Part shown: positions 5,881 to 6,344 of the stretch, piece after piece
Position numbering within the stretch: the stretch's first letter is position 1
Layout: each line of letters starts with the position of its first letter
Assembly: GCF_000027125.1 (NCBI RefSeq)
Contig: NC_017626.1
Reading direction: 5' to 3' (one strand)
Origin: Escherichia coli 042
GTDB taxonomy: Bacteria > Pseudomonadota > Gammaproteobacteria > Enterobacterales > Enterobacteriaceae
DNA: 64,000 nt
The notes under the pieces: model-generated
The model's input: the letters and a program-made list of their open reading frames with translations, nothing else
What the model was told of the DNA's origin: nothing
Databases searched by the model: none
Translations under genes and position numbers: made by a program

Positions 5881-6144
5881 ATGCTGCGTTTTATGACGGC
5901 GCTGATGGGTGCGTTATTACTTATGCAATCTGCGTTTGCCGATACGGTCAAACCGGAAATCGGTAAATATGTTTTTGGCTATCGTGGGCAGGAAGGCGCT
6001 GTGGTGTGGATGATGCGGATAGGGCCGAAAGCCTCTAATGAAGCCCTCATTCAGGTATCGCATGTTGATAATGACATCGATGGCCATATTTTTCGCTGTA
6101 AAGTGAAAGCATTACAGGAAGGTGAAAATCCTATACCGCCGTAA
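5881..6144 (+). CDS. Hypothetical small secreted protein (87 aa) with signal peptide; possibly the 5' part of a frameshifted gene continuing to about 6318
   Basis: GAGGGAA Shine-Dalgarno 6-12 nt upstream of ATG; N-terminus MLRFMTALMGALLLMQSAFA-DT is a typical Sec signal with AxA cleavage site; an overlapping start-less reading frame (6126-6318) continues with protein-like acidic sequence. Confidence 0.45.
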   Translation: MLRFMTALMGALLLMQSAFADTVKPEIGKYVFGYRGQEGAVVWMMRIGPKASNEALIQVSHVDNDIDGHIFRCKVKALQEGENPIPP

Positions 6145-6312
6145 TTAAGGGCAAATCTTTTGAGTTATTACGCCTGAAAGAGGGGAATGGCAGCCTGCAT
6201 ATTCCGGATGAGCAGGCGACCTGGTCGGTGGCCTACAGTGATGAGTTGTCAAACAGTGATGTGGCAAACCCGGAACATTTCCTTACTGCATATCAGAATC
6301 AACAAGCAGCTC

Positions 6313-6344
6313 AATAACTAAAACAGCCCCGGATTTCTCCGGGG
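6313..6344 (-). terminator. Rho-independent terminator downstream of asnB
   Basis: CCCCGGA-gaaa-TCCGGGG hairpin followed on the minus strand by a T-rich tract. Confidence 0.6.

Follow-up and report, generated by a model that had tools for sequence, protein, structure and literature searches.

A very probable, recently inactivated pseudogene of a predicted periplasmic protein between the metT tRNA operon and asnB in Escherichia coli 042

The window is a stretch of 64,000 nucleotides from Escherichia coli 042 (NC_017626.1), and the locus described here lies between two sets of genes on its minus strand. On one side is the metT-leuW-glnU-glnW-metU-glnV-glnX operon, which consists of seven tRNAs (4842-5546). 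On the other side is asnB, whose stop codon is located near 6359. Between them, the plus strand carries two reading frames that overlap only briefly. The features of the locus are the following:

5799 to 5803, plus strand: upstream copy of TGGCC, one of the two microhomologies that bound a deletion of about 430 bp.
5870 to 5876, plus strand: GAGGGAA, a Shine-Dalgarno-like motif read from the sequence and presumably functional, 4 nt away from the ATG at 5881.
5881 to 6317, plus strand: the whole putative pseudogene, 437 nt compared to 438 nt (145 codons) in the intact gene of the WP_000943486.1 / WP_000943484.1 family, as delimited by DNA alignment with intact alleles.
5881 to 6144, plus strand: ORF1, the truncated frame of 87 codons, from the ATG at 5881 to a TAA stop at 6142-6144.
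5881 to 5940, plus strand: codons 1-20, a predicted Sec (SPase I) signal peptide, MLRFMTALMGALLLMQSAFA, with the predicted cleavage site before D21; the sequence features were read by eye.
6125 to 6128, plus strand: the lesion, a run of four A (A4) in place of five (A5, GTGAAAAATCC) or of AGAAA in intact alleles; one base is deleted.
6126 to 6317, plus strand: the downstream half in the -1 frame, ancestral codons 83-145, with a TAA stop at 6315-6317 and a translation that is collinear with intact orthologs.
6229 to 6233, plus strand: downstream copy of TGGCC, the other bound of the deletion of about 430 bp.
6326 to 6345, minus strand: a GC-rich hairpin of 8 pairs, the intrinsic terminator of asnB, from a terminator scan.

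A promoter scan found no plus-strand sigma-70 promoter upstream of the gene at its thresholds. The sole minus-strand site (5617-5589) fits the promoter of the metT operon. At the other end, the hairpin at 6326-6345 starts 9 nt after the stop codon of the pseudogene. Read on the minus strand, it precedes TGTTTTAGTT; read on the plus strand, it has no T-run behind it, and the scan scores it as a terminator on the minus strand only. The initial annotation described this hairpin as a terminator shared with asnB. It is indeed the asnB terminator, but the T-tract exists on the asnB side only, and the hairpin may stop plus-strand transcription as well. An Rfam search of 5400-6500 returned only tRNAs above threshold. 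A sub-threshold match to RcsR1 (E = 0.25) over the asnB terminator was dismissed as chance.

The tRNA operon itself varies between genomes. The copy number of tRNA-Gln(UUG) is not constant: most genomes, like the window, contain seven tRNAs; strain 118UI lacks one copy of the glnU/glnW type and is left with six (L001 892-1487). In the divergent guinea-fowl isolate GF4-3, ubiF and the tRNA operon are separated by an inserted transposase gene of IS621 (IS110 family; L018 491-1471). Between metT and the promoter-like site of the operon, the window contains a private extra C at about 5572 (CCTTATCCGGCG compared to CCTTATCGGCG), which is missing from every compared genome, including the closely related CB6837. 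The T-run beside it is T9 in the window and T8 in AST85 and K-12-type genomes. The extra C could be a private mutation or a single-base error.

The first of the two frames has the appearance of a normal gene start. An ORF of 87 codons at 5881, preceded by GAGGGAA, had been pointed out before, and a direct reading of the sequence bears this out. The motif is unchanged across all four aligned E. coli alleles. The signal peptide claimed for the ORF is also borne out. MLRFMTALMGALLLMQSAFA|D has a basic n-region, a hydrophobic core of 12 residues (mean Kyte-Doolittle 2.2) and an A-x-A before the predicted cleavage site; it contains no lipobox cysteine. Export is hence predicted. S17-A18-F19-A20 are invariant in 16 orthologs, and in the AlphaFold2 model the region is a helix of low confidence. 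Beyond the signal peptide, ORF1 comprises mature residues 21-82, which form barrel strands 1-4 according to the same model, followed by the out-of-frame tail NPIPP and the stop.

The second frame is shifted by -1. It opens at 6126, right after a TGA (GG-TGA-AAA), and runs for 63 sense codons; its translation yields the peptide that was originally quoted for it. The frame ends at 6317, not at 6318 as first given. In-frame start codons occur only late, at 6228, 6246 and 6261, and the overlap with ORF1 is restricted to 6126-6144. The encoded sequence would supply barrel strands 5-8 and a C-terminal helix with a conserved EHFLTAY motif. From base composition alone, an open stretch of 63 codons is expected by chance with a probability of about 0.03, which is weak evidence. 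The homology to intact genes decides whether the second frame is real.

Intact genes do exist. In AST85 and 1447 an uninterrupted coding sequence of 438 nt is annotated at the same position, and its product is a hypothetical protein of 145 aa (WP_000943486.1 and WP_000943484.1; A0A1M0D4Y4 and A0A376LJX6 in UniProt). Full-length homologs with 84-93% identity are found in E. albertii, E. marmotae, E. ruysiae, the cryptic Escherichia clades and some Salmonella enterica, and homologs with 55-72% identity in Pseudocitrobacter, Superficieibacter and other Enterobacteriaceae. The search for orthologs that the initial annotation had suggested thus finds intact single-frame copies in other E. coli, E. 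albertii, Salmonella and Pseudocitrobacter. The gene order miaB-ubiF-tRNAs-gene-asnB-nagD-nagC is kept in E. albertii, Salmonella enterica and Pseudocitrobacter.

The two frames are not free of homologs or of conservation; both halves are conserved. With the E. coli allele as reference, comparisons within E. coli give a Nei-Gojobori dN/dS of 0.05, that with E. albertii gives 0.09 and that with Salmonella 0.07. Each half on its own stays below 0.13, with 0.06-0.12 in the downstream half. The protein alignment is collinear over the shift point, and there are invariant residues on both sides of it. These comparisons indicate that the intact gene is ancestral, vertically inherited and under purifying selection.

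Two side observations concern the history of the gene. Between E. coli and Salmonella, synonymous divergence is 0.08 over the 20 signal-peptide codons (window 5881-5940, L007 4001-4060) compared to 0.65-1.6 elsewhere, a sample that is too small to interpret. The low value could reflect constraint on translation initiation or recombination. Furthermore, a homolog with 54% identity (P0047; L010 4001-4429, an enterobacterial metagenome contig) is located between a TonB-dependent receptor gene and ptsG. Since this position is away from asnB, the family must have moved or been duplicated within Enterobacterales.

The DNA alignment reduces the difference between the window and the intact alleles at the shift point to a single 1-nt gap in the A-run: GTGAAAATCC in the window corresponds to GTGAAAAATCC or GTGAGAAATCC in intact alleles. 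The lesion shifts the frame after codon 82, and an uninterrupted frame of 145 codons is absent from the window copy. When the missing A is restored, the window allele encodes a protein of 145 aa in which Q69H is the only difference from the AST85 protein; it is 99% identical to the WP_000943486.1 / WP_000943484.1 proteins from end to end and shares their signal peptide and predicted barrel. Because the repaired allele is one substitution away from an intact allele, the lesion must be recent.

We are confident that the window from 5881 to 6317 contains a recently inactivated pseudogene of a 145-codon gene for a predicted Sec-exported, soluble periplasmic protein, and that it belongs to the WP_000943486 family as a pseudogene rather than as a functional member. 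Of the two readings offered originally, the first holds, in which the gene for a periplasmic protein of roughly 145 aa has been frameshifted recently, with a 1-nt deletion in A5 as the cause and intact single-frame orthologs of 145 aa at the same position. The frameshifted status itself is already known, as RefSeq/PGAP flags the locus: the identical allele is labelled 'hypothetical protein, frameshifted' in 118UI, in CB6837 (which matches the window at all but one base over 24 kb) and in an O15:H18 ST69 strain. It is an ordinary lineage-specific pseudogene.

The proposed course of events is simple. In the lineage of the window, one A was lost from the A5 homopolymer, probably by replication slippage. 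Translation from the normal start would then leave the frame after codon 82 and halt five codons later, which would yield a precursor of 87 residues. With four of eight strands, and devoid of the most conserved C-terminal motif, this precursor should not fold into a barrel and would probably be non-functional. It is from this half barrel that we infer the loss of function. The 63 codons downstream would remain as an untranslated relic. The exported fragment of 67 residues may have some residual activity.

Alternatively, the ORF of 87 codons could be a functional small exported protein with a new function, for which the downstream frame is irrelevant. Its start codon, Shine-Dalgarno-like motif and signal peptide are untouched, and its product has been deposited as a hypothetical protein. 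Yet what follows the signal peptide amounts to only four of eight barrel strands plus five out-of-frame residues, and no other lineage conserves a truncated homolog of this length. A single mutation separates the allele from the intact gene, and only one clone carries it. Hence, selection has had no time to act on the truncated form and has left no sign of doing so. We consider a functional small protein very unlikely. The corresponding suggestion in the initial annotation, an unannotated small protein, is unsupported: RefSeq calls the locus a frameshifted pseudogene, although the product of 87 aa has an entry as a hypothetical protein (A0A0Q3FJB6).

A different objection is that the frameshift is an error of sequencing or assembly in a homopolymer, so that the gene is intact in the strain. 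The lesion does lie within a homopolymer, the window does have one private extra C, and artefacts do occur at the same locus. The stretch 5560-6360 was compared by megablast with 5,426 complete E. coli genomes. The full stretch is present in 985 of them. A probe of 74 nt across the lesion site finds matches in 981 genomes: 173 carriers are identical to the 74-nt form with A4, and 808 have the 75-nt form. Of the 5,426 complete genomes, 173 thus have the A4 allele, and one of these is labelled ST69.

These 173 genomes were assembled independently. The carriers come from many laboratories and platforms and include FDAARGOS and CFSAN references, and the 87-aa product is found on at least 1000 contigs from several sources. 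In addition, 181 records match the window over 24 kb with an identity of at least 99%, a number close to that of the A4 carriers. The window shows no excess of homopolymer indels either. Over 3.5 kb, 3 indels and 90 substitutions separate it from AST85, and its asnB is intact. With no other sign of homopolymer error in the window, the lesion is best explained as a real clonal mutation. An error is highly improbable. The frameshift is a genuine mutation that is fixed in one clone, of which at least one carrier is labelled ST69.

Some frameshifted alleles at this locus are artefacts, and for this reason they were not counted as independent frameshifts that would indicate recurrent decay. P0033 and P0044, and probably also P0024, P0025, P0027 and P0041, had the look of independent lesions. 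The assemblies that yield the allele P0033 show 6-8 homopolymer deletions per 1.6 kb against 0-1 substitutions, and their asnB is in fragments, which identifies them as long-read artefacts. None of these alleles was counted. Three chromosome-scale assemblies (GCA_053291545.1, GCA_039615195.1 and GCA_053291585.1; L021-L023) carry such sets of 6-8 deletions per 1.6 kb. The deletions break asnB and create a false frameshift variant of 146 aa, which is now present in protein databases as P0033 and P0044.

A further alternative is that programmed -1 ribosomal frameshifting or transcriptional slippage bypasses the frameshift, so that the full-length protein is still produced. The geometry is suitable, with the downstream frame at -1 relative to ORF1 and a short overlap at 6126-6144, and a slip of a single tRNA from AAT to AAA would be formally possible. 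But the sequence reads G GTG AAA ATC and contains no slippery heptamer of the X XXY YYZ type. No stable RNA structure is found in 6100-6200 (z = 0.22; 114 of 200 shuffles fold as well). The homopolymers known to support transcriptional slippage consist of at least about 8 A or T, and A4 is far shorter. Finally, the gene is in a single frame in all other lineages and genera; the shift is hence derived and not conserved. We give recoding next to no chance.

The same is true of a phase-variable contingency switch in the A-run. The lesion lies in a coding homopolymer and both A4 and A5 exist in the species, but useful switching rates are reached with tracts of about 7 or more, well above A4 or A5, the run is interrupted in some intact alleles (AGAAA in strain 1447), and the match between 173 A4 carriers and 181 near-identical backgrounds suggests a partition by lineage without mixing inside the clone; such a switch has a negligible probability.

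The frameshift is not the only way in which E. coli has lost this gene. About 82% of complete E. coli genomes carry a deletion that removes window positions 5804-6233 and leaves the last 27 or so codons of the gene. The junction, ACTGGCC|TACAGTG, is identical in K-12-type genomes, Nissle 1917, O157:H7 and GF4-3. Since the 3' end of the gene persists in the deletion allele, the gene has been lost in these genomes rather than gained in the carriers. Hence, it has been inactivated at least twice in E. coli, once by a microhomology deletion and once by a homopolymer frameshift. With about 82% of genomes deleted, the gene is clearly dispensable for E. coli in many lifestyles.

An ATG at 5790 in the window opens an ORF of 58 codons (5790-5966) that overlaps the start of the gene and has no support as a gene. 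Where the deletion is present, this ATG runs into the relic in another frame, and the sequence can be read as a chimeric ORF of 33 codons, MKYWPTVMSCQ... (L004 1728-1830). Neither the 58-codon nor the 33-codon ORF has evidence of being a gene.

On its own, the pseudogene is of little importance. It does illustrate cleanly how a gene decays in E. coli: an ancestral, accessory-like gene was removed twice. Pipelines that call the 87-aa ORF a protein (A0A0Q3FJB6) give a name to a pseudogene fragment, and the A4 allele could be used as a simple lineage marker. Of wider interest is the role of the intact, well-conserved and unnamed barrel family, for which K-12 is of no help, as it lacks the gene.

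The mature part of the intact protein, about 125 residues, is confidently predicted to be an eight-stranded up-and-down beta-barrel capped by a C-terminal helix. The AlphaFold2 model, built from an alignment of 16 sequences, consists of the signal helix, a disordered linker, eight beta-strands and the C-terminal helix (pLDDT 82, pTM 0.73). An exhaustive phmmer search collected 151 family representatives, mostly of 140-155 aa and with 30-40% identity. At 50% clustering there are about 150 representatives, from Proteobacteria, Bacteroidota and also some fungi and nematodes. The family motifs are RPE-x-x-x-YV near the mature N-terminus, a GP-x4-E-A-L-V-Q strand, D-H-x-x-D and a C-terminal E-H-F-L-T-A-Y-L-x-Q.

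None of this corresponds to a named family in the databases searched. The single protein has no match in Pfam, NCBIfam, PADLOC or the PDB sequences. A Pfam scan and a PDB profile search with a family alignment of 46 members gave no match either, and a PHROGs search gave nothing significant. AFDB50 returns the family itself, labelled as uncharacterized, secreted or lipoprotein. A literature search found no paper that mentions any accession of the protein and nothing relevant on the metT-asnB intergenic region. The distant homologs have no conserved gene neighbours; each stands alone in a different context.

The one positive clue comes from fusion proteins. In P0064 the order is adenylate/guanylate cyclase domain (Guanylate_cyc), hydrophobic segment, barrel domain. 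In P0100 it is TIR domain, hydrophobic segment, barrel domain. These two fusions place the barrel outside the membrane, where it is likely to provide the input to a signalling protein. Other arrangements of the domain are a tandem duplication in P0052, a position at the end of P0104, whose sequence is similar to a fungal response regulator, and 7-13 matched stretches within giant proteins of 1,700-3,900 aa. The proteins with such arrangements are P0064, P0100, P0104, P0052, P0070, P0076 and P0084.

What the intact protein does can be answered only tentatively. Because the barrel is calycin-like and, in other bacteria, is joined as a domain outside the membrane via a hydrophobic segment to a cytoplasmic cyclase or TIR domain, the intact protein is possibly a module that binds a small ligand or a partner protein in the periplasm, a guess we would not bet on. 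That the unnamed, Pfam-less family of extracytoplasmic eight-strand barrels forms either a new periplasmic binding or sensor module (for example, as cyclase/TIR input) or a class of envelope inhibitors shaped like PliC/MliC seems doubtful to us. If either were true, then the continuing disappearance of the gene from E. coli would point to a niche-specific function overlooked by studies of K-12.

Several known systems can be compared with the family. One member with 38% identity, A0A1H9IWG7 from Rosenbergiella, bears the name Ivy (inhibitor of vertebrate lysozyme, PF08816) in UniProt. The query has no match to this family at E ≤ 10 and the 46 relatives have none at E ≤ 0.1; the label looks like an annotation accident. 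Likewise, UniRef calls the Pseudocitrobacter ortholog 'DUF4367 domain-containing', and the Pfam scan of the query and of the 46-member alignment, in which this ortholog is not included, finds no DUF4367.

The predicted topology fits calycin-type barrels such as lipocalins, fatty acid-binding proteins (FABPs), avidins and the C-domain of fHbp. The structural scores are weak, as Foldseek against the PDB returns only weak barrel matches (fHbp C-domain, FABPs, avidins), and there is no sequence signature of this group.

The C-type lysozyme inhibitors MliC/PliC (PF09864; PDB 4mir, 3oe3, 2f09) are not supported as relatives by sequence. Neither the protein nor its 46 relatives match the Pfam family, and hhalign gives a probability of 0.6%. 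The contact motifs SxSGAxY and Y/W-W-x-KG, which are invariant in the MliC/PliC alignment (A6), are absent from the conserved columns of the WP_000943486 family. The likeness to MliC/PliC is one of shape only, that of a predicted eight-strand periplasmic beta-barrel, a shape similar to which is also found in PhiA (7dpy) and ACP (6gq4).
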